Assembly: GCA_035548175.1 (NCBI GenBank) | Contig: DASZTO010000073.1 | Location: 581 to 64,580 of the forward strand | Reading direction: 5' to 3' | DNA from: Phycisphaerae bacterium | Lineage (GTDB): Bacteria > Planctomycetota > Phycisphaerae > WQYP01 | DNA: 64,000 nt | Part shown: positions 12,705 through 63,620 of the stretch, piece after piece | Layout: each line of letters begins with the position of its first letter | Position numbering within the stretch: position 1 is the stretch's first letter | Made by a program: the position numbers and the translations under genes | The notes under the pieces: generated by a model | What the model saw: only the letters and a program-made list of their open reading frames with translations | What the model was told of the DNA's origin: nothing | Database searches by the model: none

Positions 12705-12802
12705 GAATTAACCACGGAGGAGACGGAGAGCACGGAGGTCCGACGGCGACGCCCCCCTTACGACGACGTAAATGGCCACGAAAGGCACGAAAAACACGAA
12801 AG
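12705..12802 (+). repeat. Interspersed intergenic repeat, copy R1 (CACGGAG heptads plus TAAATGGCCACGAAAGGCACGAAAAACACGAAAG core)
   Basis: About 85% identical to 17124-17220. The GAATTAACCACGGAGGAGACGGAG head is shared with 23955-23988. The reverse-complement core matches 63565-63610. Confidence 0.7.
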
Positions 12803-12986
12803 TTGCGATGTGAAAAATGTTGCGGCGCGAAGAAATTGGCGCAGTAGTCATAGGAAAGGCAGGAGACGGATTGGTTTTGGAATGGTAGCGCGGGAGAGGC
12901 ACTTTTGGGAATGTTAAAAAAAGTATTGGGTTCCGTATCGGGGTCCGCAGGCGGTATGGGAGAATGGATTTATGGAGGATGCGACG

Positions 12987-13190
12987 ATGGATGTGCAGCC
13001 CATCAAGACCGAACGGGACTATGAGGCGACGCTCAAGCGGATCGACGCGCTGATGGATGCGCGGGCCGACACGGCGGAGGGGGATCGGCTGGGGGTGCTG
13101 GTGACGCTGGTGGAGGCGTGGGAGGCGAAGCATCATGCGATCGAGGCGCCGGACTCGGTCGGAGGTGAGCGGGGGCACGCTGAAGCGTGA
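12987..13190 (+). CDS. HigA-family antitoxin N-terminal domain only; the helix-turn-helix (HTH) domain is missing, so a probable orphan remnant
   Basis: MDVQPIKTERDYEATLKRIDALMDARADTAEGDRLGVLVTLVEAWEAKHHAIEAPD is the diagnostic HigA N-terminal motif. GGAGG sits 8 nt upstream of the ATG at 12987. The ORF stops after PDSV, where the HTH would begin. No higB-like gene is adjacent. Confidence 0.45.
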   Translation: MDVQPIKTERDYEATLKRIDALMDARADTAEGDRLGVLVTLVEAWEAKHHAIEAPDSVGGERGHAEA

Positions 13191-13220
13191 ACTCCGGACG
13201 CGCTTGGGCGGATCGAGGGG

Positions 13221-14585
13221 TTATTCGCTGGTGCGGGCGGTGACGGATTGGGCGTGGGCGTCGAAGGATTCGGTGTGGGCGAAATCGATGATGGGTTGGG
13301 CGAGGGTGGCGAGGGTGGGCTGGTCGAATTCGATGAGTGAGGTGCGTTTGCGGAAGGAGTCGGCGGAGAGGCCGGAGAAGAAGCGTGCGGTGCCGGAGGT
13401 GGGCAGGACGTGGGAGGGTCCGGCGAGGTAGTCGCCGGCGGCGACGGGGGTGAAGGGTCCGATGAAGATGGCGCCGGCGTTCTGGATGGCGCGGGCGTCT
13501 TCGCGGGCGGTGGCGGTGGAGATCTGGAGGTGCTCGGGGGCGAAGGAATCGACGAGCTGGAGGGCGTGCTGGTGGGAATCGGTGACGATGAGAGCGCTGC
13601 CGAATTGGAGGGATCTGCGGGTGAGGTTTTCGCGGGAGAGCTGGGGGAGTTGTTGCTCGAGTTCCTGCTGGACGGCCTGGGCGAGTTTGAGGCTGGGGGT
13701 GATGAGGAGGCAGGAGCCGGGGGCGTGCTCGGCCTGGGCGAGGAGCTCGGCGGCGACGTGGCGAGGGGCGGCGGTGTCGTCGGCGAGGACGATGACTTCG
13801 GAGGGGCCGGCGAAGGAGTCGATATCGACGAGGCCGTAGAGTTCTTTTTTGGCGAGTTGGACATAGGTGTTTCCGGGTCCGACGATTTTGTCGACGGGCA
13901 TGATGGTGGCGGTGCCGAAGGCCATGGCGGCGATGGCTTGCGCGCCGCCGACGGCGAAGATTTCGGTGATGCCGAGCTTGGCGGCGGCGATGAGGACGGC
14001 GGGGGCGATGAGGCCGTCGCGCAGGGGCGTGCAGAGGCAGAGTTCTTTGACGCCGGCGACCTGTGCTGGGATGGCGGTGTGGAGGACGGAGGAGGGGTAG
14101 GCGGCGGCACCGCCGGGGACGTAGAGGCCGACGCGGCGGAGGGGGGTGAATTTCATGCCGAGCTTGCCGCCCCCACCGCTCTGGGGTTTGCCGTCTTTGG
14201 CTGGGGGGGGGGGGAGGGCGGGGATGGGTTTGGGATCGGGGGTGAGCATGGCTTGCTGGTAGCGGCGGATGTTGGCGATGGCGATATCGAGGGCGTTGAG
14301 GAAGGAGTGGGGGGCGGCGCCGAGGGCGGTGGTGATGACTTCCTGGGGGACGCGGAGGGTGTCGGGGGTGAGGGTGGCTTTGTCGAATTTTTCGGTGTAG
14401 CGGAGGAGTGCGGGGTCGCCTTCGCGCTGGATGTCGCGGAGGATTTGGCGGACGGTGGCGAATTTGGAGGTGGCGGTTTCGTCGCCCTCGTCAAGGCCTT
14501 CGAGAAGCAACGGTTTGAGGGAGAGCTTGGCGCGGAGTGCGTTGACTTGGGGGGCGTCTTTCCGTGCGTCTAAGATGGGCAACAT
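13221..14585 (-). CDS. hisD: Histidinol dehydrogenase
   Basis: Motifs GLYVPGGAAAYPSSVLHTAIPAQVAGV, AGPSEVIV and the HE...H metal site; 454 aa. Confidence 0.9.
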   Translation of the reverse strand: MLPILDARKDAPQVNALRAKLSLKPLLLEGLDEGDETATSKFATVRQILRDIQREGDPALLRYTEKFDKATLTPDTLRVPQEVITTALGAAPHSFLNALDIAIANIRRYQQAMLTPDPKPIPALPPPPAKDGKPQSGGGGKLGMKFTPLRRVGLYVPGGAAAYPSSVLHTAIPAQVAGVKELCLCTPLRDGLIAPAVLIAAAKLGITEIFAVGGAQAIAAMAFGTATIMPVDKIVGPGNTYVQLAKKELYGLVDIDSFAGPSEVIVLADDTAAPRHVAAELLAQAEHAPGSCLLITPSLKLAQAVQQELEQQLPQLSRENLTRRSLQFGSALIVTDSHQHALQLVDSFAPEHLQISTATAREDARAIQNAGAIFIGPFTPVAAGDYLAGPSHVLPTSGTARFFSGLSADSFRKRTSLIEFDQPTLATLAQPIIDFAHTESFDAHAQSVTARTSE

Positions 14586-14705
14586 TTTCCAGCTCGCTTT
14601 TCTGATGGCTCCCGGTCACCGCTGTTGCGGGCCCTTCAATGTACCCTGGCCATTGGGTAGGATAAACAGGGCAAGGGGGGATTTCCTGGGTGCGGAGTGC
14701 GTGAG

Positions 14706-15056
14706 ATGCAGATTTTTCGGCTGGCGCTGCGGGCGGTGTTGTACCAGGATGCGGGGCGGTGGCTGGCGCATTGCCTGGAGATGGATTTGATTGGGGAGGG
14801 GGTGACGCGGGAGGAAGCGCTGGATTCGCTGTCGGAAAGCATCCACATGCAGGTGGAATTCAGCGTGGAAAACAACAATGTAGCGAACATTTTTCAGCCG
14901 GCGGACGCGCGGTATTTGCAGATGTTCGCCGCGGGCCAGGATTTGCCGCATGCGCAATTCCGTGTGGAGGCGTTCAGCGATCAGAATCTACGGATTGATC
15001 GGCTGGAGGCGCGGGAATACTCGGGAAGCGACGCGTTGCTGGCGGCGGCCAATTGA
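14706..15056 (+). CDS. hicB: HicB-like antitoxin (UPF0150 / HicB_lk_antitox fold)
   Basis: MQIFRLALRAVLYQDAGRWLAHCLEMDLIGEGVTREEALDSLSESIHMQVEF fits the HicB N-terminal pattern (GGxWxAxC..L....G.T.EEAL). GGAG lies 8 nt upstream of the start. Its stop is 4 nt before the hicA ATG. Confidence 0.6.
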   Translation: MQIFRLALRAVLYQDAGRWLAHCLEMDLIGEGVTREEALDSLSESIHMQVEFSVENNNVANIFQPADARYLQMFAAGQDLPHAQFRVEAFSDQNLRIDRLEAREYSGSDALLAAAN

Positions 15057-15060
15057 AGCG

Positions 15061-15309
15061 ATGTCTGACGTTCCTCTCAAGCTTCGAGAGCTTCGACGAA
15101 TTCTGACGAGATTCGGTATTGCCGAGGATCCTTCGCGCGGGAAAGGGTCGCATACGCTGTTTCATGCCACGATTGACGGGCGAGCGGTCTCCTTTCCGTT
15201 GCCCACGTCGCGCGACGATATCAATGCCGCGTACATTCGAGCGGTTCGGAAGAAGTTTCATCTTACACCGCAGTTTGGCGTTTCGGACCGGGAGTTTTAT
15301 CACGGCTGA
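15061..15309 (+). CDS. hicA: HicA-family mRNA interferase toxin
   Basis: LKLRELRRILTRFGIAEDPSRGKGSHTLFHATIDGRAVSFPLPTSRDDINAAYIRAVRKKFHL is the YcfA/HicA dsRBD-like fold with the catalytic GSH motif; 82 aa from the ATG at 15061. Confidence 0.7.
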   Translation: MSDVPLKLRELRRILTRFGIAEDPSRGKGSHTLFHATIDGRAVSFPLPTSRDDINAAYIRAVRKKFHLTPQFGVSDREFYHG

Positions 15310-15377
15310 CAGGGAGATGCCGAGACTTCCCCCCACCGAGCAACACATCGCAGCGCCACCGTGCGTGGTCGAGTACA

Positions 15378-16199: not shown

Positions 16200-16294
16200 G
16201 GGGGTCTCCGGAGCGAAAGGGGCATTATAGGGAGCGGGGCGGGTGGGGGCGATGCGGTGGGGTAATTGGTAAATAGTCATTGGTAATTGGGGGG

Positions 16295-16726
16295 TTAGGG
16301 TTGGGATTGTGCGGGTTGGGGGGCGATGGTGGCGGCGGAGGCCCATTGGACGACGTCGTTTTCGACGATCATGGCGACGTAGGAAATTTGCGGAGAGGAA
16401 AGGGGTTTGATGACGGTGATGCGGATGCCGGAGAACTGGGTGGCGAGGGCGCCGGCGGGGGTGGTTTTGGGGGTCTGGGTACCGATGGCCACCTCGGCTC
16501 TTTGGCCGTTTTCGATCTGGAGGAAGGGGCGTGAGAGGACATCGTATTTGCCGTCGGCCTGGAGGCGCATCAGGACGAATTTCACGAGATAGGTGTTGCC
16601 GGATTGTTTGGCGGTGGCGTTGATGGTGTAGAGGGCAGGGGCGGGTTGCGAGGCGGGGGGCACGGGAGCGGGGGCGGCGGCGAGGAGGAGGGGGAGGAGG
16701 GCGGCGACGGTGAGGGGGCGGCGCAT
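16295..16726 (-). CDS. Small secreted protein of unknown function
   Basis: Signal peptide MRRPLTVAALLPLLLAAAPAP from the ATG at 16726; 143 aa; no recognised domain. Confidence 0.5.
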   Translation of the reverse strand: MRRPLTVAALLPLLLAAAPAPVPPASQPAPALYTINATAKQSGNTYLVKFVLMRLQADGKYDVLSRPFLQIENGQRAEVAIGTQTPKTTPAGALATQFSGIRITVIKPLSSPQISYVAMIVENDVVQWASAATIAPQPAQSQP

Positions 16727-17080: not shown

Positions 17081-17270
17081 ACGGTAAATGGCCACGAAAA
17101 ACCGGGCGCGGCGAAGCGCAAAAGATTAAACACGGAGCACACGGAGAGCACGGAGGAACGACGACGGTCTCCCCCCCAACGACGACGTAAATGGCCACGA
17201 AAGGCACGACAAGCACGAAAGACGGCGGACGGGACTTGTCCACGAATGCACACGAATTTACACGAATGGA
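17081..17270 (+). repeat. Interspersed intergenic repeat, copy R2 (the longest copy, with a CACGAATG tail)
   Basis: GATTAAACACGGAGCACACGGAGAGCACGGAGG...ACGACGACGTAAATGGCCACGAAAGGCACGACAAGCACGAAAG...TCCACGAATGCACACGAATTTACACGAATG. It contains two TAAATGGCCACGAAA cores, and the reverse complement of 63530-63620 matches its tail. Confidence 0.7.
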
Positions 17271-17478
17271 CGTGGTGGGATTGGATGGAGCGGGAAGGGG
17301 CCACCGATGGGCGCCGACGATTGAATTGCGGCGGCATGAAAGGGGTTGGGATTCTTAAGGGGACAGGCGGTGCGGGATGCGCGGGGTATGGAGATTTTAC
17401 AGATATTTGTAAATCTTTTTCTGGGGGGTGAGCGTGTCATGGGTGTGCAGGCGGTGGGCGCGGCGGTGCAGGTGTGGG

Positions 17479-18111
17479 ATGCTGGCGATGTTGGTGGATG
17501 CAGGAAACGGAGTTGGCTGCGTGGAGGCGAGGGTGCCGGAGTCGGATGATGAGGCGCGGGCGGATCGAGCGGCGTTGGAGCGGCTGCGGGCGGGGGATCT
17601 TGGGGGGTTCGACGGGTTTGTGGATCGGTACAAGCAGCGGTTGTTCCGGTATTTGCTGGCGCGGGTGGAGTCGGTGCAGACGGCAGAGGATTTGACGCAG
17701 GACGTTTTTTTGAAGGCGATCCGGAATCCGCCAGGGGATGCGGGGGCAGGGCGGGTGTCGACGTGGCTGTTCACGGTGGCGCAGCGGTGTCTGCAGGATC
17801 ATCAACGGTGGCGGCGGCGTCGGGCGCAGCATGCGGAGGCGGTGATGGCGGCGCGGCCTGCGGGAAGGAGCGTGGATCCGGCGGCGGCGGCGAGCGCGGA
17901 GGAGGAGCGGGTGCGGCTGGCAGCATTGCTGGGGAAGCTGCCGGAGGAACAGCGGGATGTCCTGACGCTGCGGCTGCTGGGGGATTTGTCGATAGCGGAG
18001 ATTGCGGCGGTGACGGGGGCGCCGGAAGCGACGGTGAAATCGCGATTGAAATATGGATTGGAAAAGCTGGCGCGGAGCGTGCCTGGAGCGCTGAAGGAGG
18101 ACCGGCGATGA
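17479..18111 (+). CDS. RNA polymerase ECF-type sigma-70 factor
   Basis: Region 2 (RAGDLGGFDGFVDRYKQRLFRYLLARV...AEDLTQDVFLKA) and region 4 (LPEEQRDVLTLRLLGDLSIAEIAAVTGAPEATVKSRL). The start is taken as the ATG at 17479 inside the longer GTG-initiated ORF. Confidence 0.8.
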   Translation: MLAMLVDAGNGVGCVEARVPESDDEARADRAALERLRAGDLGGFDGFVDRYKQRLFRYLLARVESVQTAEDLTQDVFLKAIRNPPGDAGAGRVSTWLFTVAQRCLQDHQRWRRRRAQHAEAVMAARPAGRSVDPAAAASAEEERVRLAALLGKLPEEQRDVLTLRLLGDLSIAEIAAVTGAPEATVKSRLKYGLEKLARSVPGALKEDRR

Positions 18112-20849
18112 GCAAACCGTTGCCTGCGGACGTAGTGGAATTGGCGGAGACGGCGGAGGAGCGGGAGCTGTTGGAGCGCGCTGCGGGGGCGGCGCGGACA
18201 GATGTGGAACTGGCGGGGGGATTCAACGATCGGCTGCATGAGCGGTTGACGGCACCGGTGGGACGGGCAGGGCGTGAGCGCCGGTGGCGGCAGGTGGCGG
18301 GTCTGGCGGCGATGCTGCTGGTGGGCGCGTGGCTGGGGGCGACGTTGTTTTCACGGGGAGGAAATCCGTTGGTGGGCGGGGTGGCGTGGGCGGATGTGGT
18401 GCGGGCGGTGAATCATGTGCAGCAGTTGCACGTGCTGGCGTATCAGGAGTCGCCGCAGTCGGGGGGAAACATGCCGCCGTTGTCGCGGTTGGATTTGTAC
18501 TACCAGGCGCGGGCGGGAGCGGCGGGAATGTGGCGGGCACAGGGGCTGGGGCACGTGCAGTTTTTGACACCGGGGGAGAAGCCGGAATCGCGGACGTGGT
18601 CGGTGGCGGAGAAGCAATGGACGACCCGGGACAACGTGCGGCTGATTCCGCAGGGGATGACGGGAAAGGTGGAATCGGGAGATTTGCTGGAGGTGGTGCT
18701 GACGTGGATTTTTCATGGGGCGGCACCGGAGGCGCAACCGGTGAAGAACGACGCGCTGACGGGGGCGGGGATCGATGTGTTTGACTATGCAACGGACGCG
18801 GCGTCGCCGTGGGCGCGGATATGGGTGACGCGGGATTCGCGGTTGCCGGTGCGGATCAAGATGTACGCGCCGGCGTCGGATGGCTTTTTGCTGCTGGAGT
18901 TTGATTACGGGGAGGCTGAGCCGGCGGATTTTTTCAATCCAGAGGCGTTTGAGGCGGGGATGGGGCGGTTGGATGCGGAGGCGGCAACGCGACCGGCGCG
19001 GGCGTACGAGATGGGGGCGGCGCCGGTGGACAACCTGCGGCCGCAGACGGCGCGACAGATTCACACGGTGCAGCCGGAGGCGGTGGCGCCGAAGGTAATT
19101 TCGGCGACGCGTCTGGCGTCGGGGGACATCGTGCTGGTGACGACTTCGCCACGGAACGTGAATGCGGGGGGCAGTGCGGATGAATTCGAGTTACACGATG
19201 TGGTGGACGACCAGGGAACGCGATATGCGGCGGAGTGGTTCAGCGAAGGGGTGCATGTGAATGAGGAATCGCCGCGGACGACGTGGCTGATTCCGGTGAG
19301 CGCGCCCGTCGGGGAAGTGAAGTCGGTGAAAGCGCGGGTGTTCACGCGGGCGGCGGAGGCGCAGGAGCTGGGGGAACTGGAAGCGGCGGTGACGGAAGGA
19401 AGCGTGCCGTCTGCGCGTGGTCCGACGGCGGAGGGGCGGTTTGCGGCGTTGCGTGCGTATTGGCAGAACGGGACGGTGGCAGAGCGGCGGGCGTTTGTGG
19501 AGCGGGCGCTGGCGGAGCATCCCCATGATGCGGGGGCGGTGCGGGCGAAGATGGAGTTGCTGTTTGAGCTGGGGAAACGGGAAGAGGGATGGGCGCTGTA
19601 TGAGCAGGAGATGCTGCCGGAGGCGCTGGAGACGCTGCTGGATGATGAGGCGAACGTAACGTTGTTTGCGGGGTATGTGCTCTGGCTGGAGAACCAGGGG
19701 CGCGGGACGGAGGCGAAAGTGCTGACGGAGAAGGGGCGGAAGGTTGTGGAGGAAGCGGCGTTTGGGAAGGATGCGCGGCGGAAGGCGGCGGCGATGCAGG
19801 CATTGCGGCCGGAGGAGTGGAATCTGTTTGGGAAGGTGCTGAAACTGCCGGAATTGGAGTCGTGGGTGGTGGGATCCAACAAGCCGGTGGTGAAGCAGAT
19901 GATTGTGGGAGAGGATGGGGTGGTGGTGGTGCAGGTGGCGTTGCCGGGGAATCTGCCGGCGTCGGTCATGGGGCCGGTGCGCGGTGGCTCGATGGCGGCG
20001 GATTATGCGTTGTGGGCCGGGATGACGGCGGCGGATGTGACGGCGGAGGGACGGGCGGTGTGGCGACAAACCGGGGCGGCGTACGATCCGGCGACACACA
20101 CGCTGGCGCTGGGGTTTCGCGGGAGCGGGAAAAAGTTGACGCTGACGAAGCAGATCACGCTGCTGCAGGATGCGTATCCTTCGGCGGCGGGGGATTTGCA
20201 ATATGCGTGGAAGCTGGCGGTGGCGACACCGGCGGCGTCGACGGAGAGCGCGGCGGCGTGGTGGGCGAAAAATGTGCCGGCAGATCCGAGCAAGTGGTGG
20301 GCGGACCAGCGGCCAGTACCCTCGCCGTTTGATGCGTCGCAGATAGTGGCGGAGGAGGCGTTGCGGGCGGGCCGGAACGCGGAGGCGGCGGGGTTGTATG
20401 GGGAGTTGATCAGAACGCTGGATCGGGCGGGTCCGCCGCCGGGGGTGACGGGGGATAATGCGGTGGCCTTGCGGGATAGTTTGGAGGAGGGGCGCGTGGA
20501 GGCACTGACAGGCGCCGGGGATTTAACGGGGGCGGAGAAGGCTTTGCGGGCGTGGGAGGAAGAGCTGCCGGGGGCGCCGGATTTTCACAAGCGGTTTGTG
20601 GTGGAGCGGTATGAGAAGGTCAATGGGGCGGGGGCAAAGCTGGCGGAGGCATTGATGGATGCGGGGGAGGCGGAGGCGGCGCGGAGGGTGCTGGATGGGC
20701 TGGAGAAAGCGCGGCCGGATTTGAAGGATGAGGTGGACGTGCTGGTGCGGGAGGCGGGGAATGGCGGGGTGTGGTGGTATGTGGGAGAGAATCGGGGGGC
20801 GTGGGTGGCGGTGGATCGGGCACGGTGGCGGATGATGAAGAGCGAGTGA
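18108..20849 (+). CDS. Anti-sigma factor; 913 aa, single-pass membrane protein with a large extracytoplasmic TPR-like domain
   Basis: The ATG at 18108 overlaps the sigma-factor stop as ATGA. The N-terminus is cytoplasmic, followed by a TM helix (VAGLAAMLLVGAWLGATLF) and a roughly 800-aa extracytoplasmic region with TPR-like helical repeats at the C-terminus. Confidence 0.6.
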   Translation: MSKPLPADVVELAETAEERELLERAAGAARTDVELAGGFNDRLHERLTAPVGRAGRERRWRQVAGLAAMLLVGAWLGATLFSRGGNPLVGGVAWADVVRAVNHVQQLHVLAYQESPQSGGNMPPLSRLDLYYQARAGAAGMWRAQGLGHVQFLTPGEKPESRTWSVAEKQWTTRDNVRLIPQGMTGKVESGDLLEVVLTWIFHGAAPEAQPVKNDALTGAGIDVFDYATDAASPWARIWVTRDSRLPVRIKMYAPASDGFLLLEFDYGEAEPADFFNPEAFEAGMGRLDAEAATRPARAYEMGAAPVDNLRPQTARQIHTVQPEAVAPKVISATRLASGDIVLVTTSPRNVNAGGSADEFELHDVVDDQGTRYAAEWFSEGVHVNEESPRTTWLIPVSAPVGEVKSVKARVFTRAAEAQELGELEAAVTEGSVPSARGPTAEGRFAALRAYWQNGTVAERRAFVERALAEHPHDAGAVRAKMELLFELGKREEGWALYEQEMLPEALETLLDDEANVTLFAGYVLWLENQGRGTEAKVLTEKGRKVVEEAAFGKDARRKAAAMQALRPEEWNLFGKVLKLPELESWVVGSNKPVVKQMIVGEDGVVVVQVALPGNLPASVMGPVRGGSMAADYALWAGMTAADVTAEGRAVWRQTGAAYDPATHTLALGFRGSGKKLTLTKQITLLQDAYPSAAGDLQYAWKLAVATPAASTESAAAWWAKNVPADPSKWWADQRPVPSPFDASQIVAEEALRAGRNAEAAGLYGELIRTLDRAGPPPGVTGDNAVALRDSLEEGRVEALTGAGDLTGAEKALRAWEEELPGAPDFHKRFVVERYEKVNGAGAKLAEALMDAGEAEAARRVLDGLEKARPDLKDEVDVLVREAGNGGVWWYVGENRGAWVAVDRARWRMMKSE

Positions 20850-21159: not shown

Positions 21160-22326
21160 CTACGGGTTCCCTTGGGGGAGGTCGTGGAAGGATTTGGTGG
21201 TGGGGAGGGGCAAGGGGAGGCGTTCGAGGATTTTGAGGAGGCGGGAGGCGGCGTGGCCGTCGCCGTAGAGGTTTTTGCGTTGGGCGATTTTTTTGCGGAA
21301 GGGTTTGTTGGTGAGTGCGAAGCGGATGGCGGATTGGATGGGGCGGAGGGAGGCGGGCGAGACGCCCGCGGTACGAGACCAGGGGACGTCGAGGATGTTG
21401 GGGTTGCGTTCGCGGCCTTTCTGGCGGTCGCCGAGGTTGATGACGGGGAGGGCGAAGGAGGCGGCTTCGATGATGCCGGCGGAGGAGTTGCCGATGAGGA
21501 GCGAGGCCTGGGTGAGGAGCTGCCAGAAATCGGGTTGGGAGAGGGACATGGTGAGGGGGATTTTGGCGGCGGTGTAGGCACGGAGGATGCCGGTGTGGCC
21601 GGGGTCGTTGTTGGGGCCGATGGCGGTGAAGGGGATGTTGGCGGCGCGGAGGGCGCGGAGGAGGAGGGAGGTGCGTTTTTGTTCGAGGGCGTCGTCTGGG
21701 GAGGAGGGGTGGAGAAGGAGTAGGGCGGAAGGGTTTGACAAGGTGACAGGGTGACAAGGTGACGAGGTGAGGAAGGCGGCGAGGGTGTCGAGGGCGGGGG
21801 CGCCGATGACGTGGATCGTTTTGGGATCTTCGCCCATTTGTTGGATGCGTTGGGCGGCGCGATTGGTGGCGGGGAAGTGGCGGTGGGCGAGTTTGGTGAT
21901 GGCGTGGCGGATTTGTTCGTCCCAGGTGCCGGGTGCGGTTTCGCCGCCGTGGAGGTGGGCGATGGGGATGTGGGAGACGAGTGCGGCGTTTGCGGCGGCG
22001 AGCATTTCGAGGCGGTCGCCGAGGAGGAGGAGGAGGTCGGGTTTGAGGACGGCGAGTTCTGCGCCGAGCCTGGTGACGGCGTGTCCGAGTGATGCGGCGG
22101 GAGGATCGTCGGGACGGTACATGTCGACGACGGCTTCGATGGGGATGCCGGAAGCTTCGACGTCGCGGATGGTGTAGCCGAACTGCGGTTGGAGGTGCAT
22201 GCCGGTGACGATCAATTGGGGGCGGAGATTTTTGGATTTTTGGAGGGCGTGGAGGATGGGGGTCCAGATGCCGAATTCGGCGCGGGTACCGGTGAGGATA
22301 GCGATATTGCGAAGGGAACTAGCCAC
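21160..22326 (-). CDS. neuC: UDP-N-acetylglucosamine 2-epimerase (hydrolysing), NeuC type
   Basis: IAILTGTRAEFG, LIVTGMH, LLLGDRLEMLAAANAA, IPIAHLHGGE and HPVTL all match NeuC/SiaA. GTG start at 22326. Confidence 0.85.
   Translation of the reverse strand: MASSLRNIAILTGTRAEFGIWTPILHALQKSKNLRPQLIVTGMHLQPQFGYTIRDVEASGIPIEAVVDMYRPDDPPAASLGHAVTRLGAELAVLKPDLLLLLGDRLEMLAAANAALVSHIPIAHLHGGETAPGTWDEQIRHAITKLAHRHFPATNRAAQRIQQMGEDPKTIHVIGAPALDTLAAFLTSSPCHPVTLSNPSALLLLHPSSPDDALEQKRTSLLLRALRAANIPFTAIGPNNDPGHTGILRAYTAAKIPLTMSLSQPDFWQLLTQASLLIGNSSAGIIEAASFALPVINLGDRQKGRERNPNILDVPWSRTAGVSPASLRPIQSAIRFALTNKPFRKKIAQRKNLYGDGHAASRLLKILERLPLPLPTTKSFHDLPQGNP
21734..21770. repeat. Imperfect GGTGACAA octamer tandem array inside neuC; a 30-nt segment is 29/30 identical to 26184-26213
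   Basis: TTTGACAA GGTGACAG GGTGACAA GGTGACGA GGTGA. It is in frame and encodes TSSPCHPVTLS. Confidence 0.6.
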
Positions 22327-22365
22327 GAATGCTCACAAATGGACACGAATGAATGTAAATGATTC
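22321..22365 (+). repeat. Repeat-family fragment R3 (CACGAATG / CACAAATG words) in the neuB-neuC spacer
   Basis: GCCACGAATGCTCACAAATGGACACGAATGAATGTAAATG matches the tail of R2. Confidence 0.45.
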
Positions 22366-23444: not shown

Positions 23445-23530
23445 TTGTCCACAAAAGCACACGAACGGACACGAATTTATCTAATTTGGCGTCTATTTGT
23501 GTTCATTTATGAGCATTTGTGGACGCGTGG
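23445..23530 (+). repeat. Repeat-family fragment R4 spanning the neuA 3' end and the neuA-neuB spacer
   Basis: TTGTCCACAAAAGCACACGAACGGACACGAATTT...TTTGTGTTCATTTATGAGCATTTGTGG. The last 11 codons of neuA (TRPQMLINEHK) are encoded by repeat sequence. Confidence 0.45.
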
Positions 23531-24332
23531 GGTTTTGCTGGGCGCGAAGCATGGCTTCGGCGAGGTAGAGGTCTTTTTCGGTGTCGATGTCGACGGAGTC
23601 TTCGGGGGAGACGATAAGGCCGCGGCGATCGGCGCCGAGGAAGGCGTGGGGGTCTTCGGGGTGGTTTTCGGCTTGCATGAGGACGCCGGTTTTCATGACG
23701 TAGACGGCGCCGGTGGGGGAATAGAGCGGGGGGAGGTCCTGGCGGCGGAAGATGGTGTTGGGGATGTGCTTTTGGATTTGATTTGAGTTGGGGTTGAGGT
23801 CGAACATCCAGTAGGGGTGGAATTTGCCCACAGATGCGATGGTTTGGACGGAGTCGGCGCCGGTGTCGAGCAACATTTGGATGCAGCGGTCGATCATGTT
23901 GTCCGTGCGGATGGGGACGTTGCCGTAGAGCATGACGATGGCGCGCGGAAGATCAGAATTAACCACGGAGGACACGGAGGGCACGGAGATTGGATTTTTG
24001 ATTTTCTCTGCCTCCGTGTTCTCCGTGGTTTCAAAGGAATGCGGATAGAGCGAGCGGACGGCGTGGCGGAGGACGGGGTCGGTGGCGCTGGCGGCGGTCG
24101 CGAGCTCGGGGGGGCGGAGGAGGGTTTCAAAGCCTTCGGAGTGGGCGAGGGCGAGGATGTCGGGGGAATCGCTGCTGACGATGGTGCGGGTGATAAGGGT
24201 GGATTGGCGGGCGTGGTCGAGGGTGTAGGCGAGGACGGGTTTGCCCAGGAGGGGCCGGAGGGATTTGTTGGGCAGGCCGACGGAGCCGGCGCGGGCCATG
24301 ATGACGGCGAGGATGTGAGGCGCGGTGGCCAT
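23493..24332 (-). CDS. neuA: N-acylneuraminate cytidylyltransferase (CMP-Neu5Ac synthetase) carrying an in-frame palindromic-repeat insertion
   Basis: ILAVIMARAGSVGLPNKSL...GKPVLAYTL...IVSSDSPDI...AIVMLYGNVPIRT (the QPTSPLR-equivalent motif). ATG at 24332. A roughly 30-aa loop (FETTENTEAEKIKNPISVPSVSSVVNSDL) is encoded by repeat R5. Confidence 0.8.
   Translation of the reverse strand: MATAPHILAVIMARAGSVGLPNKSLRPLLGKPVLAYTLDHARQSTLITRTIVSSDSPDILALAHSEGFETLLRPPELATAASATDPVLRHAVRSLYPHSFETTENTEAEKIKNPISVPSVSSVVNSDLPRAIVMLYGNVPIRTDNMIDRCIQMLLDTGADSVQTIASVGKFHPYWMFDLNPNSNQIQKHIPNTIFRRQDLPPLYSPTGAVYVMKTGVLMQAENHPEDPHAFLGADRRGLIVSPEDSVDIDTEKDLYLAEAMLRAQQNPTRPQMLINEHK
23955..24030. repeat. Palindromic repeat-family copy R5 inserted in frame within neuA
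   Basis: Arms AACCACGGAGGACACGGAGGGCACGGAG and CTCTGCCTCCGTGTTCTCCGTGGTT flank an AT-rich 17-nt loop. The head is about 90% identical to R1 12705-12738. Confidence 0.65.
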
Positions 24333-58377: not shown

Positions 58378-58462
58378 CCATTGCCCATTGCCAAATTGCC
58401 CATTGCCAATTGACGGGACGCTCCCTTCTCAATTGGCAATCGGCAATCGGCAATCGGCAATT
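58378..58462. terminator. Composite inverted repeat built from ATTGCC / GGCAAT hexamer arrays between convergent genes; bidirectional terminator candidate
   Basis: GCCATTGCCCATTGCCAAATTGCCCATTGCCAATTG ... CAATTGGCAATCGGCAATCGGCAATCGGCAATT. It sits exactly between the stop at 58374 (+) and the stop at 58465 (-). Confidence 0.55.
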
Positions 58463-58464
58463 CC

Positions 58465-61400
58465 TCAATTCCCCCTGAACGTCCCCATCACCTGCCCCGT
58501 CAAACTCACCGTCCGGTTCACGCGCGACCGCGGATCGCTCCCGCCGTTCTCCAGCGCATGCTGCAATTCCGCCACCCGCTGCATCGCCGCTTCCTGCTTC
58601 GGATAACGCACATCCCGGTATCCCGTCACCGGCTCCGGCGATTTGAAAATCTCCAGCCACAGCGAATACTTCTGCGCATCATGCGGCGCGTGCAGGTCGC
58701 ACGCATCCACCAGCCCCGTGTACCACGCCCGGAACGCCTTCTCCTTCGCATGCCACGACGGCAAAATCGTACGCAGCCACCGGCAATGACGCAGCACCCG
58801 CACCTGCCAGTCCCGGCTCTTCCAGTGAAACTTCACGTGCTTCCCCCCCAGCACGAACTCCGGCCGGTTCAAATGCACATACGTGATCTTGTCCCCGTTC
58901 GCCGGGTTCACGTTGAACCGCCGCCGGTCCCGCTTGTACTTCTCCGGACTCGTGTACAGCATCGACACGTACACTTCATCCTTGATCATCATCACCTTCG
59001 CCAGGTTCCATATGACCGCCCGCGTGATCGAAAAATTCCGCTCCGGCGTGTCCTGCGCATACGTCTTCACGATCCGCGACGCATACTGCCGCCCATATTT
59101 CAGCGTCCCCCACTGCACCGCATCAAACAGCCGGATCACATAATCCCGCCGCGCCCCCTCCTCCAGCCCAGGCATCTGCGTCAGCGTCTCCCGGCAAATC
59201 TTCTTGTATTCCTCCGCGTTCTTCTTGCCCCATATGCTGCTCACCTTCAGGATGTTCGCCTTCCGCTCCAGCGCCTGCTCCGCCGACTCCAGCTCCTTGC
59301 GCACCCCCACCCCGAACAAATCCGGCCGCAGCACGATCTTCCGCCCGATGTTGAACGCGCGATAGTTCCGCTCGAACTCGCGCCCCACCGCATGCCGGAT
59401 CGCCAGCGTCAAACTCTTGTACGACAGCGGAATGAACCCCAGCTGATACGCCACCCCCAGCATCATGATGTTCGCATACAGCTTCGAATCCAGCAGCCGC
59501 TCGCACAAATCCCCCACGTTGAACGAGAAGAACTGCCCCGGTCGGCACTGGCTCTTGATGATCCCCGCCAGCTCCTCCGGCTCAAAATCGTCCCGCCCCA
59601 TCAGCGTCAGAATCGTCGGCGTCTTGCCCGTGTTCACCACCGCGTGCGTGAACTTCGGGCTCGCCACACGCAACACATCCTGCGGCGAACACGCCCGCGC
59701 CGCCTCCAGCGCATCCACCCCGATCAGCAAATCCGCCTTGCCCCACGGCATCACCGGCGAGCCCCCGATCGGATGCTTGCTCAACTGAATCTGCGAGAAC
59801 ACCCCCCCGTTCCGGATCGCCAGCCCCTTCTTGTCGATGAACCCGACATACAAGCCATCCTTATGCGCCGCGCGCACCAGGATGTCTCCCGCCACCCCGA
59901 TCCCCATGCCTCCCACGCCCGCCATGTAGCACCGCCACACGTCGTTCTTCGCCCACACATCGCCCAGCACCGACGGCGGCTCCGGCATCCCCTGCAAATC
60001 CACCACCTCATCCGGCAACCGCGGCGGCCGCTTGCGCGTCACGATCACCTGCTCAAAGCTCGGGCACGCATCGATCCGCGCGCACGCCCCATCGTTCACG
60101 CACGCCGTGAAGTCCGTCTGCATCTTCTTGCCGTAATCCGTGTCCACGTGCTTCAGCCCCGGACACCCCGTCTGCGTCGTGCACTCCAAACAGTATTCGC
60201 ACACCTCCTCCGACACGTTCATGTACGTCTTTTCCCGCACAAACCCCACTTCCTTCTTCTCCGCCTGCTCCGCACGCCGACGCCGCCGGTGGAACGTGAT
60301 CCCGCACTCCTTGTCCGCGATCACGATCTTCACCCCATCCTCCAGTATCACCTTCTCCAGCATCTCCTTGTAATTGTCCCGGCTCGCCGGATTCATCCGG
60401 ATCACCCGCGCCCGCGGAACTTCCTTCGTCTCCCGCGCGTTCGTCCCCAGCGGCCCCGCCGCATCCGGAATCAGGCTCCGCACGATCCGCTCGATATCGT
60501 GCGACAAAATCTTGTTCCCCATGATGTCTTCTTCCAGCGTCGGGTTCGGCTGGTGCCCCGTCATCGCCGTCGTCCGGTTCTCCAGGATGATGAACGTGAT
60601 GTCCTGCTGCTGCGTGATCGCATTCGCGATCGCCACGCTCCCCGAATGGAAAAACGTTCCATCCCCCATGAACACGATCTGCTTGTTCGTGATGAACGGA
60701 TCCGCCCCCGCCCCCGTCGCCCCGCCCAGTCCCATCCCGCTGTAATTGTGCATCAACGGCTTGTTCGGCTCGAACATCATCATCGTGTAGCAGCCCGTGT
60801 CCCCATGCGCCACCAGATCCATCGGCCCCTTCCCATACGCCGTCTGCATGTACTGCGGATCCAGCATCCGCTTGCGAATCTCCAACAACGCGCTCGACGA
60901 ATCCCGGTGCGGACACCCCGGGCAATACGCCGGCGTTCGCACCGGCACCACCGTCCCAAACCGACCCGCCTTCTCGATCGTGTCCAGCTCCTCCGACAGC
61001 CGCCCGTTCGCCAGCTCGTGCGGCATCCCCGGCGTGTCCCGCAAAAGCTCCGTCAGCTTCTGAATCAGCAGCGACGGATGCAGCCCGCGCGTGCTCGGTA
61101 TCCCCGCCCGATTCCCCGGAAATTTCTTGCCCCACAACTGCGTCTCCGCCGCACCGTTCCCCTGCCCGCCGCCCCCCCCGCTCTGCCGCAGGTTGTTCAA
61201 GTGCTCCGCGATCTGCTTCTCGATAAAACTCCGCCGCTCCTCCACCACCACCAGCCGCTCGCACATCCCCCCGATCTCATCCACCAGCCCCATATCCACC
61301 GGATACGAAAGCGCCAGCTTCAACATCGGAAATTCCCCCAGCAGCCCCATCTCGCGCAGCGCATCGCACAGCATCGCAAACGATGGCCCGCTCGACACAA

Positions 61401-62214
61401 ACCCGATCGGCGCACGCTGGCACCGCCCGCCCCGCCAGCTCCGCTCGATCGGATACAAAATCCGGTTCAATCCCAAATCCCGGCACCGCTTCAACAGCAC
61501 CTTGAACCGGTCCTCAAACGTCAATTCCTGCTTCCACGTCCGCGGCGGCAGCAGCACCGTCTGCTCCACCGGAATCTTCGTCGTGTCGATCGCCACCTGC
61601 TGCTTCGTCGATATCGCCGGCCACTGGTTCGGCCGGCATTCCACGGTCCCCCCCCCATCCGCCAGCATCACCGTCACCCCCAGCCCCACATACAGCTTCG
61701 CATGCACGCTCAGATCGAACGCGTGCCCCACCCAGTCCTTCAATTCCTGCGAATTGCTCGGCTCCAGCACCGGCACACGCATGTGCTCGAACAAAAAACG
61801 TGAATCCGCCGGCACCTGCGTCGATTCGCTCCACGGATCGTCACCGCTCACGATCACCGCCCCGCCCGACTCAAACGGCACCCCCGCCAGGTTCCCCAGC
61901 GCCAACGCATCCGACGCCACATGCAATCCCACGCTCTTGAACACCGCGATCCCCTTCACCCCCACCATCTGCGCGCCATTCAGCATGGCGACAGACAGCG
62001 CCTCGTTGTTCGCCATCTTCGCCGCCACCCCCTTCTCCGCCAGCAGCCCCGCAATGTCGTGGCACGCATCAAAAAACCCCGCCACCGGACTCCCCGGATA
62101 CCCCGTCAACAACCCCACTCCCCCCGGCGTCTCCAGGCACCCTTTGAGCAGCAGCTCCGCCCCCGTGTAAATTTCCGAGCCGCTCTCAACCAAAAATCGG
62201 GGATCAATACGCAT
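58465..62214 (-). CDS. Indolepyruvate:ferredoxin oxidoreductase family protein (fused IorA/IorB)
   Basis: MRIDPRFLVESGSEIYTGAELLLKGCLE...LTGYPGSPVAGF N-terminus, thiamine pyrophosphate (TPP)-binding GDG motif, ferredoxin-like Cys clusters (CPGCPH, CEYCLEC), and a C-terminal IorB-like region. 1249 aa from the ATG at 62214. Confidence 0.8.
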   Translation of the reverse strand: MRIDPRFLVESGSEIYTGAELLLKGCLETPGGVGLLTGYPGSPVAGFFDACHDIAGLLAEKGVAAKMANNEALSVAMLNGAQMVGVKGIAVFKSVGLHVASDALALGNLAGVPFESGGAVIVSGDDPWSESTQVPADSRFLFEHMRVPVLEPSNSQELKDWVGHAFDLSVHAKLYVGLGVTVMLADGGGTVECRPNQWPAISTKQQVAIDTTKIPVEQTVLLPPRTWKQELTFEDRFKVLLKRCRDLGLNRILYPIERSWRGGRCQRAPIGFVSSGPSFAMLCDALREMGLLGEFPMLKLALSYPVDMGLVDEIGGMCERLVVVEERRSFIEKQIAEHLNNLRQSGGGGGQGNGAAETQLWGKKFPGNRAGIPSTRGLHPSLLIQKLTELLRDTPGMPHELANGRLSEELDTIEKAGRFGTVVPVRTPAYCPGCPHRDSSSALLEIRKRMLDPQYMQTAYGKGPMDLVAHGDTGCYTMMMFEPNKPLMHNYSGMGLGGATGAGADPFITNKQIVFMGDGTFFHSGSVAIANAITQQQDITFIILENRTTAMTGHQPNPTLEEDIMGNKILSHDIERIVRSLIPDAAGPLGTNARETKEVPRARVIRMNPASRDNYKEMLEKVILEDGVKIVIADKECGITFHRRRRRAEQAEKKEVGFVREKTYMNVSEEVCEYCLECTTQTGCPGLKHVDTDYGKKMQTDFTACVNDGACARIDACPSFEQVIVTRKRPPRLPDEVVDLQGMPEPPSVLGDVWAKNDVWRCYMAGVGGMGIGVAGDILVRAAHKDGLYVGFIDKKGLAIRNGGVFSQIQLSKHPIGGSPVMPWGKADLLIGVDALEAARACSPQDVLRVASPKFTHAVVNTGKTPTILTLMGRDDFEPEELAGIIKSQCRPGQFFSFNVGDLCERLLDSKLYANIMMLGVAYQLGFIPLSYKSLTLAIRHAVGREFERNYRAFNIGRKIVLRPDLFGVGVRKELESAEQALERKANILKVSSIWGKKNAEEYKKICRETLTQMPGLEEGARRDYVIRLFDAVQWGTLKYGRQYASRIVKTYAQDTPERNFSITRAVIWNLAKVMMIKDEVYVSMLYTSPEKYKRDRRRFNVNPANGDKITYVHLNRPEFVLGGKHVKFHWKSRDWQVRVLRHCRWLRTILPSWHAKEKAFRAWYTGLVDACDLHAPHDAQKYSLWLEIFKSPEPVTGYRDVRYPKQEAAMQRVAELQHALENGGSDPRSRVNRTVSLTGQVMGTFRGN

Positions 62215-62437
62215 TCGCGTTCCGGAAAATAGATGCAAAGTTAGGTCCGCTATTTTACCAAAGGCACTCCGCGAAAACGACCAATAACTTTCAGAACTCT
62301 CGGGCTCCCTCTCCCATTTTCCCGGAAATCCCCGCGTTTTCCACCCTCCGCCCCCTCCAAGCCCTCCCCATCCATTATCCCGCCAACGCGAAAATCTCCC
62401 TTGAGCCTCACGATTCCCGCGGTATGCTTCTTTACCT

Positions 62438-63406
62438 ATGCTCAAAAAACTCCTCATCCCCGGCACCTCCCTCCGCGTCTCCGAAATCTCCCTCGGCACC
62501 GCCCCCTGGGGCAGCCGAACCCCGCAAGCCACCGTCACCCAACTCTATGACCTCTACCGCGCCGCCGGCGGCAACGTCCTCGACACCGCCCACGTCTACG
62601 CCTCCTGGCTTCCCAATGGCAACGGCGCCAGCGAACGCTCCATCGCCCAGCTCCTCGCCACGCGCAACGACCGCCGCCAGATCGTCCTCGTCTCCAAGGG
62701 CGGCCATCCCACCTTCGAAGGCTATCCCCGCCCCGACCGCTACATGGACCCCGCCCTTGTCCGCCAGGACCTCCGCGAAAGCCTCCAGCGCCTCGCCGTC
62801 GACACCATCGATCTCTACTTCCTCCACCGTGACGACCGGCGCGTCCCCGTCGGCGAAATCATCGACGCCCTCAACGACGCCGTCGCCGACGGCCAAATCC
62901 GCTACTTCGGCGCCAGCAACTGGTCCACCGCTCGCATGGAAGAAGCCAACCGCTACGCCGCCAACCTCTCCAACGCCGGCGCCGAAAAAATGGGCTTCGT
63001 CGCCTCCCAACCCGAATTCAGCCTCGCCCACCCCAACGCCCCCGAGCCCACCGCCGAACCCGCCAACCGCTTCCTTCGCCCCGCCGATCTCGCCTGGCAT
63101 ACTCAAACCGGCATGCCTGCCTTCTGCTACACCCCCGCCGCCCAGGGCTACTTCGGCTCCAACGGCCAGAAAGGCGCCAAAGCCTTCGACAACCCCACGT
63201 CCCAGGCCCGCCTCGCCCGCGCCAAGGAACTCGCCGGTAAACTCCGCGCTACCCCCGCCCAAATCGCCCTCGCCTACGTCCGCAGTCAACCTTTCCCCGC
63301 CATCCCCATCGTCGGCACCGAAAACCCCCAGCACCTCCAGGAATCCCTCGACGCCGCCAACATCACCCTCACCCCCGACCAACTCACCTGGCTCACCGAC
63401 GGCTGA
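62438..63406 (+). CDS. Aldo/keto reductase
   Basis: ISLGTAPWG...LDTAHVY...IDLYFLHRDD...IRYFGASNW... AKR fold motifs. Confidence 0.85.
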   Translation: MLKKLLIPGTSLRVSEISLGTAPWGSRTPQATVTQLYDLYRAAGGNVLDTAHVYASWLPNGNGASERSIAQLLATRNDRRQIVLVSKGGHPTFEGYPRPDRYMDPALVRQDLRESLQRLAVDTIDLYFLHRDDRRVPVGEIIDALNDAVADGQIRYFGASNWSTARMEEANRYAANLSNAGAEKMGFVASQPEFSLAHPNAPEPTAEPANRFLRPADLAWHTQTGMPAFCYTPAAQGYFGSNGQKGAKAFDNPTSQARLARAKELAGKLRATPAQIALAYVRSQPFPAIPIVGTENPQHLQESLDAANITLTPDQLTWLTDG

Positions 63407-63410
63407 CTAC

Positions 63411-63620
63411 GGAACCATCCACAAATCCACACAAATCCCCACAAATGCGCTGCGCCCAATCCACCTCCCCACCGTAAAGATCAACCCCGCCTCTCAAAAA
63501 AAACATCGCCGCATTCCCCGCCCGCCCGCATGAAAGCCCACATCATTTGTGAACATTTGTGTAAATTTGTGGATACTTCCCGTCGTCCTTTCGTGTCCTT
63601 CGTGTTCTTCGTGGCCATTT
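63411..63620 (-). repeat. Repeat-family copy R6 (reverse orientation; CACAAAT words plus the TAAATGGCCACGAAG core)
   Basis: The reverse complement of 63565-63610 is AAATGGCCACGAAGAACACGAAGGACACGAAAGGACGACGGGAAG. CCACAAATCCACACAAATCCCCACAAATG occurs at 63419-63447. Confidence 0.6.

Follow-up and report, generated by a model that had tools for sequence, protein, structure and literature searches.

Tandem-heptad hairpins in a Phycisphaerae contig as candidate members of a cross-phylum superfamily of tiny insertion elements

Introduction

Very short dispersed repeats are common in environmental bacteria, and most of them have no known mechanism. The repeats considered here are arrays of three tandem heptads, found as single arms, as chains of arms, or as inverted pairs that form strong hairpins, in a stretch of 64,000 nucleotides from a Phycisphaerae bacterium (Planctomycetota; metagenome-assembled genome GCA_035548175.1, contig DASZTO010000073.1, positions 581 to 64,580 of the forward strand). 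This whole stretch is called the window throughout.

Other small elements share one or another of these features. Rickettsia palindromic elements (RPE), which are confined to Rickettsia and have no tandem-unit arms, are palindromes that lie in-frame within coding genes and add a tolerated peptide. In cyanobacteria, short tandemly repeated repetitive (STRR) heptamers and small dispersed Nostoc repeats have reportedly been described by Mazel in 1990 and Elhai in 2008; such repeats are dispersed and intergenic, and comparison has shown very small elements to be inserted, often in hairpins. We know of no mechanism that mobilises the small dispersed Nostoc repeats.

The closest precedent comes from the Geobacter metallireducens genome paper (Aklujkar et al. 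2009, BMC Microbiol 9:109, PMC2700814), in which 'class 2 global regulator binding sites' are described as three tandem copies of TCTCCGTS[Y], with 21 pairs on opposite strands at a variable distance. Sister classes in that genome consist of four octamers GTTGCTYN, five heptamers MTYCTGA, or four heptamers GGACCGG (49 sites, both intergenic and intragenic), and the insertion sequence (IS) elements ISGme8/9 keep a constant distance to related class 1 sites. The authors' guess, of which they made no test, was that IHF/HU or a regulator binds the sites. The sites, which come from this one genome, appear in supplementary figures only (PMC2700814).

The class 2 motif is CTCCGTG at a 9-bp period, and is thus the same arm as the CACGGAG x3 array of the window. 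Three tandem 9-nt repeats of this consensus are present at 23964-23988, 12713-12738 and 17131-17155, with nnCTCCGTG x2-3 on the other strand; the copy inside neuA is paired on opposite strands as in Geobacter, whereas the copies called A and B below are unpaired. The Geobacter sister classes and the window alike contain tandem octamer and heptamer arrays. In contrast, two of the core types in the window, M2 (TAAATGGC-CACGAAA) and M3 (CACGAAT/CACAAAT), are not among the Geobacter classes. A literature search for the literal arm sequences found no other paper.

The explanation that we favour, at a rough probability of 55%, is that the window copies are members, lacking an open reading frame (ORF) and in part halved or chained, of a cross-phylum superfamily of tiny non-autonomous insertion elements. 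The arms would be threefold recognition arrays, and the elements would be inserted and replaced at spacers and tolerant protein loops, where they decay by slippage and transitions. The alternatives are weaker, and each is weighed below with the evidence that bears on it.

Arm modules and their duplication in the window

The unit of each arm is a 7-nt core, CAC[AG][AG]A[N], present exactly three times and separated by variable spacers of 2-3 nt. Three modules can be distinguished (Table 1). M1 consists of (A)TTAA[C/A] followed by CACGGAG x3 at a 9-bp period; M2 consists of CACGAA[A/G] x3 at the same period, always preceded by the prefix TAAATGGC; and M3 consists of CACGAAT/CACAAAT x3 at a 10-bp period. 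The window contains nine threefold arrays of this core, as compared with none in each of 200 dinucleotide-preserving shuffles, and the 34-nt core of M2 does not occur in 100 shuffles.

An earlier reading of this DNA, made from the letters alone (the sequence-only reading), placed a single repeat family of 100-190 bp at six or more loci. The six that it lists all hold the sequence described, including the copies at the 3' end of neuA and inside that gene, and the identity of about 85% over roughly 100 nt given there for the two full copies, A (12705-12802) and B (17124-17221), is measured here as 86.7% over 98 nt, with the non-repetitive spacer included. This alignment argues that the M1-spacer-M2 composite was duplicated as one unit. 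In addition, the reverse complement of 63541-63621 matches the M2-spacer-M3 portion of copy B at 74.7% identity over about 82 nt. What emerges is not one family but several arm modules of a cross-phylum superfamily, and because single arms do not fold, the copies once taken for head-only and tail-only fragments are separate M1, M2 and M3 modules. An enrichment around the neu island and the toxin-antitoxin/sigma region, also proposed, is not supported: the copies are too few, and both parts of the window with a strong GC skew contain arrays throughout.

The M2 arm with its TAAATGGC prefix has no match in viral contigs, and the prefix is absent from 25 related neuA loci and from the related loci L269-L272 (L numbers denote compared loci), which argues that the M1-M2 composite is lineage-specific. 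Two other interpretations of this region were rejected. Copies A and B are not hairpin halves that were split by an inversion, since the GC skew is unbroken across the intervening 4.4 kb, and a small ORF at 'TAA ATG GCC ACG AAA' (MATK...) was discarded because its frames end after 13 to >45 codons, without conservation.

One arm in more than ten phyla and in viral contigs

A scan for the exact pattern CACGGAGNNCACGGAGNNCACGGAG covered contigs from one genome per species. It places the exact CACGGAG x3 arm in at least 119 DNA stretches, with more than 10 phyla represented; the chance expectation, by our own arithmetic (21 fixed bases, ~1.2e12 positions), is about 0.3. The matches listed come from Acidobacteriota, Beta- and Gammaproteobacteria, Verrucomicrobiota, Planctomycetota, Gemmatimonadota, Spirochaetota, Bacteroidota, Chloroflexota, Myxococcota, Kiritimatiellia, Cloacimonadota and Acidimicrobiia, and the carriers in the Gammaproteobacteria/Betaproteobacteria group include an isolate, Dokdonella fugitiva. 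A few of the matches (Streptomyces, Planotetraspora and Chthoniobacter L059) are HGDHGD-type repeats of coding sequence and not elements.

An element usually consists of TTnAC-CACGGAG x3, a middle part that varies, and CTCCGTG x3-GTnAA; sequence outside TTnAC is not conserved between genomes. Among the matches listed, 86 of 152 arms have an inverted partner, mostly 15-300 nt away. There are also nested forms, in which an outer pair of one core type surrounds an inner pair of another (L006, L010, L094, L102, L065). The flanks hold further core types at the 9-bp period (CACAGAG, CACGGGG, CACGAAG, CGCGAAG and CGCAGAG), all of which differ from CACGGAG by transitions only, together with a long tail of rare unit sequences. 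Viral contigs carry the CACGGAG x3 arm in at least 120 stretches.

The 42.6-kb viral contig IMGVR_UViG_3300009185_000039 (L167, L169, L183, L207) has at least seven nearly identical single arms of the form TTTAAC-CACGGAG x3, several of them inside or at the very end of long ORFs; one of these ORFs ends in ...TTENTESTEGKK, with an ATGA shared between its stop codon and the start codon that comes next. Related contigs (L174, L215) have arms in common with it. In an uncultured planctomycete (L024, 5040-5400), CACGGAG x3 is followed by five CATAGGG/CGTAGGG heptads and more arrays in a nested composite, with complementary arrays on the far side about 300 nt away.

This distribution bears on the idea that the arrays are local products of replication slippage and template switching, that is, quasi-palindromes formed at fragile sites and not transferable copies. 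Unit numbers do change by exactly 9 nt between close relatives, arrays recur at the same sites, and there is the long tail of rare unit sequences. Nevertheless, local slippage cannot yield the same 25-nt arm with its TTnAC flank in more than 10 phyla, nor can it explain composites that were duplicated together with a non-repetitive spacer. The cross-phylum identity largely refutes this explanation, which is very improbable for the elements as a whole and plausible only for the changes in unit number.

Another alternative is that the elements are ordinary miniature inverted-repeat transposable elements (MITEs) of a conventional DDE-type IS, with the heptads as subterminal repeats and the parent IS elsewhere in the genome. 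Inverted arms, small size and many copies are all as expected for MITEs. Moreover, in one Rhodocyclaceae genome there is a whole-element family of about 150 bp whose ends lie some 20 bp past the heptads, and its four copies are flanked by TTCAT/TTCAT, TTGAAT/TTGAAT, TTGAAT/TTGATG and TGCAA/TTCAA; these 5-6-bp direct repeats are candidate target-site duplications. The fixed distance of ISGme8/9 from the related class 1 sites of Geobacter points the same way, but those IS elements target the sites and do not share their ends. No transposase was seen beside the arms in about 2 Mb of loci, which were not searched systematically for one, and none is present among the scanned ORFs of the window. With no recognisable target-site duplication at the window copies, and with the lack of conservation beyond TTnAC, a conventional IS parent is a quite improbable source of these elements.

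Turnover at orthologous sites

The paired M1 copy at 23957-24034 is a hairpin that lies within neuA and encodes ...ETTENTEAEKIKNPISVPSVSSVVNS... in the protein (26 codons; residues 101-130). In an AlphaFold2 model of NeuA (mean predicted local distance difference test score, pLDDT, 83; predicted template modelling score, pTM, 0.81), residues 101-130 form a low-confidence surface coil, and the insert is thus modelled as a disordered surface loop. Among 24 aligned NeuA homologues of 59-87% identity, many have TTEDTExTE...SVSSVSSVV at this one loop, and nine have nothing there. In the DNA of 25 metagenomic neuA loci, the DPVLRH-MLYGNVP stretch measures 78-93 nt when it is empty. When it is occupied, the in-frame occupant varies: CACGGAG hairpins in the window and L269; CACAGAG hairpins in L120, L123 and L271; a 9-mer hairpin of the GACAGAT type in L130; CGAAACT x4 in L124; and unrelated palindromes in L121/L127, L122 and L126. 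From one Phycisphaerae lineage to another, one NeuA surface loop hosts different in-frame hairpin elements.

The loops of L271, L120 and L123 have CACAGAG in all cores of both arms, where other lineages have CACGGAG, so that either all six cores changed in concert or a sister element took the place of the first; the L271 loop retains 'aaaaatcc' in common with the window.

The other end of neuA is also affected by an element. Its stop codon (23493-23495) lies inside the hairpin at 23450-23525. The last ~13 codons (...NPTRPQMLINEHK and the stop) are supplied by this downstream element (23493-23530), and the C-terminal tail that they encode is a surface coil with pLDDT <50 in the model. Several NeuA homologues also end in peptides of CACGAAG-type arms (RRHEGTKAQR, RRHEDTKGHEGGTK).

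Differences are also seen between close relatives at the level of whole elements. The NeuA of L271 is 79% identical to that of the window; the element in the neuA-neuB spacer, present in the window and L269, is absent from L271 because its two genes overlap. In the neuB-neuC spacer, L271 has a CACGGAG hairpin where the window has a solo M3 arm, whose orthologue is found in L269. The window and L269 are colinear over 13.2 kb at 88.7% identity. Five of the arrays in this segment have orthologues in L269, from which they differ by point changes and, in one case, by the loss of exactly 9 nt. Two other sites differ in content: at 21736, in neuC, L269 has a different palindromic insert at the same place, and at 31450 it has GAAAATC x4 at the same intergenic place. 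These comparisons show presence/absence differences and replacement at orthologous sites, the kind of polymorphism for which the sequence-only reading proposed to compare related strains, and suggest that the elements are mobile.

The colinearity ends exactly at the end of neuC (window position 21175), as seen when window 17428-20849 is set against L269 13168-17798. A sigma/anti-sigma-like block and composites A and B lie in the non-syntenic part.

The same data must be set against the proposal, made as a hypothesis in PMC2700814, that such repeats are cis-acting binding-site arrays for a chromosomal 'global' protein (a nucleoid protein or regulator), kept because they regulate or organise their neighbours. 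In its favour are the three conserved cores at a fixed period of 9-10 bp, with free spacers. Arrays lie at gene boundaries, including the divergent promoter region that holds composite B, five are retained at orthologous sites in L269, and their orientation relative to the strand is uniform. On the other hand, regulatory sites would not be expected in-frame in enzyme loops or nested within each other, or to give way to unrelated units at one site in a relative of 89% identity, or to be identical across more than 10 phyla and phages. In addition, the genes next to the arrays in the window have no function in common (Pfam scan), and no candidate protein is known. The sequence-only reading had allowed that the motif might be an array of sites for a known regulator; no known regulator motif or Rfam family explains the repeats, and of the resemblances considered, to DnaA boxes, Shine-Dalgarno sequences, extracytoplasmic function (ECF) promoters and integron attC sites, none fits every core family. 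We consider the regulatory explanation unlikely.

Folding and an RNA-level role

The sequence-only reading proposed to check the RNA structure of the palindromic copies, and the paired elements do fold far better than shuffled sequences. The neuA copy (23957-24034) has a predicted energy of -38.9 kcal/mol (z -7.1 vs shuffles), and the neuA-neuB spacer copy (23450-23525) and the copy at 63420-63571 have z scores of -3.9 and -2.9. Loops are 15-98 nt long. Single arms do not fold.

One alternative is that the stems act in RNA, where they might be processed (for example by RNase III), stabilise the transcript or insulate cistrons from one another, in the manner of the 23S rRNA intervening sequences; single arms would then be decayed halves, and such a role could coexist with mobility. 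Besides the strong predicted hairpins, this account has in its favour the positions of the paired elements. Only 26% of these lie in a frame that is open for 150 nt on both sides, vs 71% of control intervals, so that most paired elements are at gene boundaries and the in-frame copies are a minority. Transitions, the only differences between the core families, are changes that G-U pairing can absorb, and within operons small genes are found bracketed by arms. On the sense strand, the neuA-neuB hairpin has a short T-run after it.

Against this account, consensus scans show no enrichment of terminator-like or promoter-like sites at the elements, and no canonical intrinsic (Rho-independent) terminator is found there, only weak partial matches at 23977-23963 and 17243-17225. 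Rfam 15 gives no match at the gathering score, and a permissive Rfam search returns only chance matches to miRNA-precursor hairpins (E 0.3-0.7). On the sense RNA the mismatches of the neuA-neuB hairpin are of the A-C kind, and only the antisense strand would have G-U pairs in their place. Single arms, which make up many of the copies, form no fold, and a stem needs no identical core across phyla. Finally, the 2-nt spacers were compared between the arms of 24 elements that have three exact cores in either arm; 47% of positions are Watson-Crick, as compared with 35 +/- 4% in shuffled pairings, so that the spacers barely covary. Since the cores are constant and the intervening stem is not, sequence-specific recognition of the threefold array is favoured over mere selection for a hairpin. 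We regard an RNA-level role as an improbable explanation of the elements.

Arms around GxxExxY genes

A possible source of a protein that reads the arms is suggested by the loci that were selected for an arm. In these, the only gene found between or next to arms encodes a GxxExxY protein of about 120 aa (TIGR04256, E 1e-43; PF13366 PDDEXK_3, E 2e-41). All four such genes are bracketed (L005, L083, L109 and the truncated cassette L022), the first three by CACGGAG x3 arms. An automated search for other cargo genes was too noisy in G+C-rich DNA, and nothing but the GxxExxY cassettes and a few phage genes stood out.

The association was also approached from the protein. Twelve loci, four of them viral contigs and eight of them plasmid or chromid records from cultured bacteria, were chosen by the GxxExxY protein alone, and the 160 nt upstream of each gene were compared with the 160 nt downstream, taking z >=5 as significant for an inverted repeat. 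A significant inverted repeat flanks 8 of the 12, a direct repeat 5 of the 12, and either one 11 of the 12. These arms are again short tandem units: TTCAC-CACAGAG-ga-CGCAGAG-ga-CACGGAG ... CTCTGTG x3-GTGAA in Bacteroides finegoldii, CACAAAG/CACGAAG in L265, CGCGAAG units in Sphingomonas, and A+T-rich 8-12-mers in low-G+C hosts. GxxExxY genes are associated with such arms, and the arms of the window are of the same sequence type.

The protein-chosen genes are co-oriented inside housekeeping operons (for example radA-X and ade-X). In Sphingomonas parapaucimobilis (L276, NZ_CP155749.1) the GxxExxY gene and its CGCGAAG/CTTCGCG arms lie between fabD and fabG, which in S. paeninsulae (L281) are only 32 nt apart, arguing that the whole cassette is an insertion. 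The annotated GxxExxY ORF of S. parapaucimobilis reads through the right arm, giving the tail ...IASSRLRVNQRIGG before its stop.

GxxExxY may be the reader of the cores, or a marker of the parent element. PDDEXK_3 is described as a family of no known function, with a phylogeny showing 'multiple transfers' (PMC3424549). Sequence searches of solved structures yield no GxxExxY relative, and the literature on GxxExxY/PDDEXK_3 contains passing mentions only.

A broader proposal would unite these observations. Tandem-heptad hairpins and GxxExxY genes could be parts of a single selfish system that crosses phyla, has so far gone unrecognised and is built around a minimal PD-(D/E)XK nuclease. It would be analogous to that of REPINs, the paired form of repetitive extragenic palindromic (REP) sequences, and RAYTs, the REP-associated tyrosine transposases. 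The ~120-aa protein would recognise the threefold arrays, or a cruciform or stem, and would move or copy both its own cassette and the more numerous ORF-less hairpins into spacers and, in-frame, into protein loops, with phages as one vehicle between phyla. We put this forward as a tentative proposal, more doubtful than not.

A working model

As we picture it, the elements would be inserted into, and swapped at, intergenic spacers. In-frame landings in tolerant protein loops would survive because the purine-rich cores can, by our own reading, be read in all six frames without meeting a stop codon. New elements would tend to land in or beside existing hairpins, giving rise to nested and chained composites such as M1-M2-M3. 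Slippage by 9 nt would afterwards alter the number of units, and transitions the core type. The conserved cores most likely bind a multimeric protein supplied in trans. The GxxExxY cassette, with its arms of the same kind, would be the leading candidate for this protein or, failing that, for the parent 'full-length' element. Both the reading of the cores by a protein and the insertion chemistry are steps that we infer, and the window copies are at most ORF-less relatives of GxxExxY cassettes.

A number of observations weigh against this picture. No GxxExxY gene is found by tblastn in the window or in 303 kb of related Phycisphaerae DNA, and none is present in the 120 listed viral loci with an arm. 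PDDEXK_3 is without a known activity (PMC3424549). CACGGAG arms flank GxxExxY proteins that are only ~48% identical, so that any specificity of arm for protein is putative, and in phage contigs arms bracket other genes too, for example ssb. Among the viral matches listed, 106 of 129 arms are unpaired. No target-site duplication is recognisable at the window copies. The five arrays conserved in L269 fit a selected cis function as well as they fit recent common descent. Finally, by our own count, the G-rich strand of all 11 single arrays coincides with the locally G-rich strand, a uniform orientation that could reflect function or replication bias, not random insertion.

The window and its arrays

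The window belongs to a 64.8-kb contig and has a G+C content of 62-69% and two strongly GC-skewed parts, 10-38 kb and 52-64 kb. From 12 to 38 kb the skew ranges between +0.3 and +0.49, and from 54 to 64 kb between -0.2 and -0.42; in the interval of 38-52 kb it is about 0 and changes sign. In our reading, the differences between CACGAAT and CACAAAT fit the strand-specific loss of C that this skew implies. The extreme skew follows the strand and not the direction of the genes: G occupies 69% of third codon positions in the ECF sigma factor gene at 17428-18111 (plus strand, G-rich part) and 65% in the oxidoreductase gene at 58465-62544 (minus strand, C-rich part), and genes on the opposite strand have C at 70-78% of third positions.

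About 30 ORFs of the window were scanned with Pfam and represent housekeeping genes, including those for a ClpB-like protein, hisD, an amidotransferase, an ECF sigma factor, branched-chain ABC transport, trmE, PNPase, queA and the neuA-neuB-neuC cluster. Composite B is located in the divergent spacer between the amidotransferase gene (GATase_5, minus strand) and the ECF sigma factor gene (17428-18111, plus strand). Composite A is contained in a region of about 870 bp (12100-12970) that has no convincing gene. This region also has a decayed CTTCGTG-like array on the minus strand (~12326-12358) and, at 12224-12276, a repeat of 14-nt period with small palindromes. Downstream of it is a 72-aa ORF (12972-13190, plus strand) without a Pfam hit, which presumably resembles the N-terminus of a HigA-like antitoxin.

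Further arrays with units of 7-8 nt were identified with Tandem Repeats Finder and by direct reading (Table 1). Using the gene calls of L269, four arrays lie in-frame within genes: the hairpin in neuA and the arrays in neuC, the SPASM-domain gene and the MptE-like gene.

Table 1. Arm modules and further tandem arrays of the same class, with positions counted from the first letter of the window
Feature	Positions	Strand	Remarks
Composite A, M1 arm	12705-12738 (M1 array 12713-12738)	+	AATTAAC + CACGGAG ga GACGGAG ag CACGGAG; single, without inverted partner
Composite A, spacer	12739-12768	+	C-run between ACGACG flanks; kept in composite B (alignment)
Composite A, M2 arm	12769-12802	+	TAAATGGC + CACGAAA x3, 9-bp period
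GGTAATT x4 heptad array, second copy	16261-16290
Truncated M2 prefix	17085-17100	+	TAAATGGCCACGAAAA, single unit
Composite B, M1 arm	17124-17155 (M1 array 17131-17155)	+	ATTAAA + CACGGAG x3
Composite B, M2 arm	17188-17221	+	2 mismatches vs copy A
Composite B, M3 arm	17241-17267	+	CACGAATG x3, 10-bp period
GGTGACAA x4 octamer array	21736-21770	+	read in-frame in neuC
Solo M3-type arm	22324-22350	+	43-nt spacer, neuB stop to neuC start
M3-type hairpin	arms 23450-23476 and 23496-23525	.	between neuA and neuB
M1-type hairpin	23957-24034 (arms 23964-23988 and 24003-24027)	.	78 nt, in-frame in neuA
GGTGACAA x4 octamer array, second copy	26180-26213		in SPASM-domain gene
GGTAATT x4 heptad array	26893-26922	+	read in-frame in MptE-like gene
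CTGAGTC/CTGAATC x4 heptads	31450-31476	+	intergenic; read as matching Geobacter class 3 consensus MTYCTGA
CCATTGC x4 / GCAATCG x4 heptad hairpin	58378-58461	.	between two convergent genes; different unit, same class
CACAAAT-type hairpin	63420-63571 (arms 63420-63446 and 63545-63571, 98 nt apart)	.	directly 3' of aldo/keto reductase stop codon
M2 arm with TAAATGGC prefix	63588-63621	-	17 nt outside the 63420-63571 hairpin; layout as in composite B

Implications

A 25-nt arm that is nearly letter-identical in Acidobacteriota, Proteobacteria, Verrucomicrobiota, Planctomycetota, Bacteroidota, Spirochaetota, Myxococcota and phages, that turns over between relatives of 89% identity, and that recurs in-frame in one and the same enzyme loop raises questions that are directly testable. 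These include which protein reads the heptad arrays, whether the large GxxExxY/PDDEXK_3 family is a mobilising enzyme, and what share of the protein-loop and intergenic variation in these phyla has been created by such elements. The elements also create spurious ORFs (TTEDTE..., SVSSV... and FVFFV... peptides) and extend real ones, as at the NeuA C-terminus, and can mislead both annotation and assembly.

Comparison with known systems

The sequence-only reading called the repeats MITE- or REP-like. They are indeed small, non-coding and partly palindromic; a target-site duplication, a cognate transposon, the GTAG/CGTC head of REPs, a RAYT gene and a strictly extragenic position are not found in the window. 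Like MITEs, they are small and have inverted ends, code for nothing, occur in multiple copies, and are present in some relatives and absent from others. The hairpins at 23450-23525, 23957-24034 and 63420-63571 are non-coding inverted repeats within the MITE size range (under ~500 bp), whereas the single arms are not. They differ from MITEs in that no target-site duplication is recognisable at the window copies, no parent IS is known, the arms are internally repetitive, and many copies are single arms. As the same reading stated, no transposase, and also no integrase, is present among the ~30 Pfam-scanned ORFs of the window, and no cognate autonomous transposon was found there. GxxExxY, which is the sole gene located between such arms, is not a known transposase.

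The likeness to REPs and REPINs lies in short palindromic sequences with many copies, in the occurrence of singlets and inverted doublets, and in non-autonomy. The GxxExxY cassette parallels the REPIN/RAYT arrangement, in which a gene for a small single-domain protein is flanked by its own repeats. However, a REP is a single palindrome of 20-40 bp, and the window arms are tandem arrays; the window heads are TTnAC, TAAATGGC or (G)TC. Location also differs: one copy is in-frame in neuA, and the reading frames of the neuC, SPASM-domain and MptE-like genes run through arrays. Each REP family is specific to a species, whereas CACGGAG arms cross phyla. RAYTs have the fold of HUH Y1 transposases, and the candidate GxxExxY protein that of PD-(D/E)XK enzymes; no RAYT gene is found among the window ORFs scanned with Pfam.

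Similarity to RPE is limited to the neuA copy, a palindrome that is in-frame in an ORF, and is an analogy, not membership: the sequences are unrelated, and a minority of the present copies are intragenic. STRR are contiguous heptamers, like GGTAATT x4 in the window, whereas the CAC family has a 7-nt core with a 2-3-nt spacer and exactly three units; the STRR and Nostoc repeats also have other unit sequences and another host phylum. Like the cassettes, the 23S rRNA intervening sequences place a small, selfish-looking ORF in the loop of a long inverted-repeat stem that is inserted into a host transcript, but theirs is a four-helix-bundle ORF family, at an rRNA site, with excision by RNase III shown.

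Taken together, the elements work like MITEs or REPINs without showing the defining features of either, and they match the class 2 sites of Geobacter. To the description of those sites in PMC2700814, the present comparison adds the spread across phyla, the turnover at orthologous sites, the in-frame copies in protein loops, and the link to GxxExxY genes.

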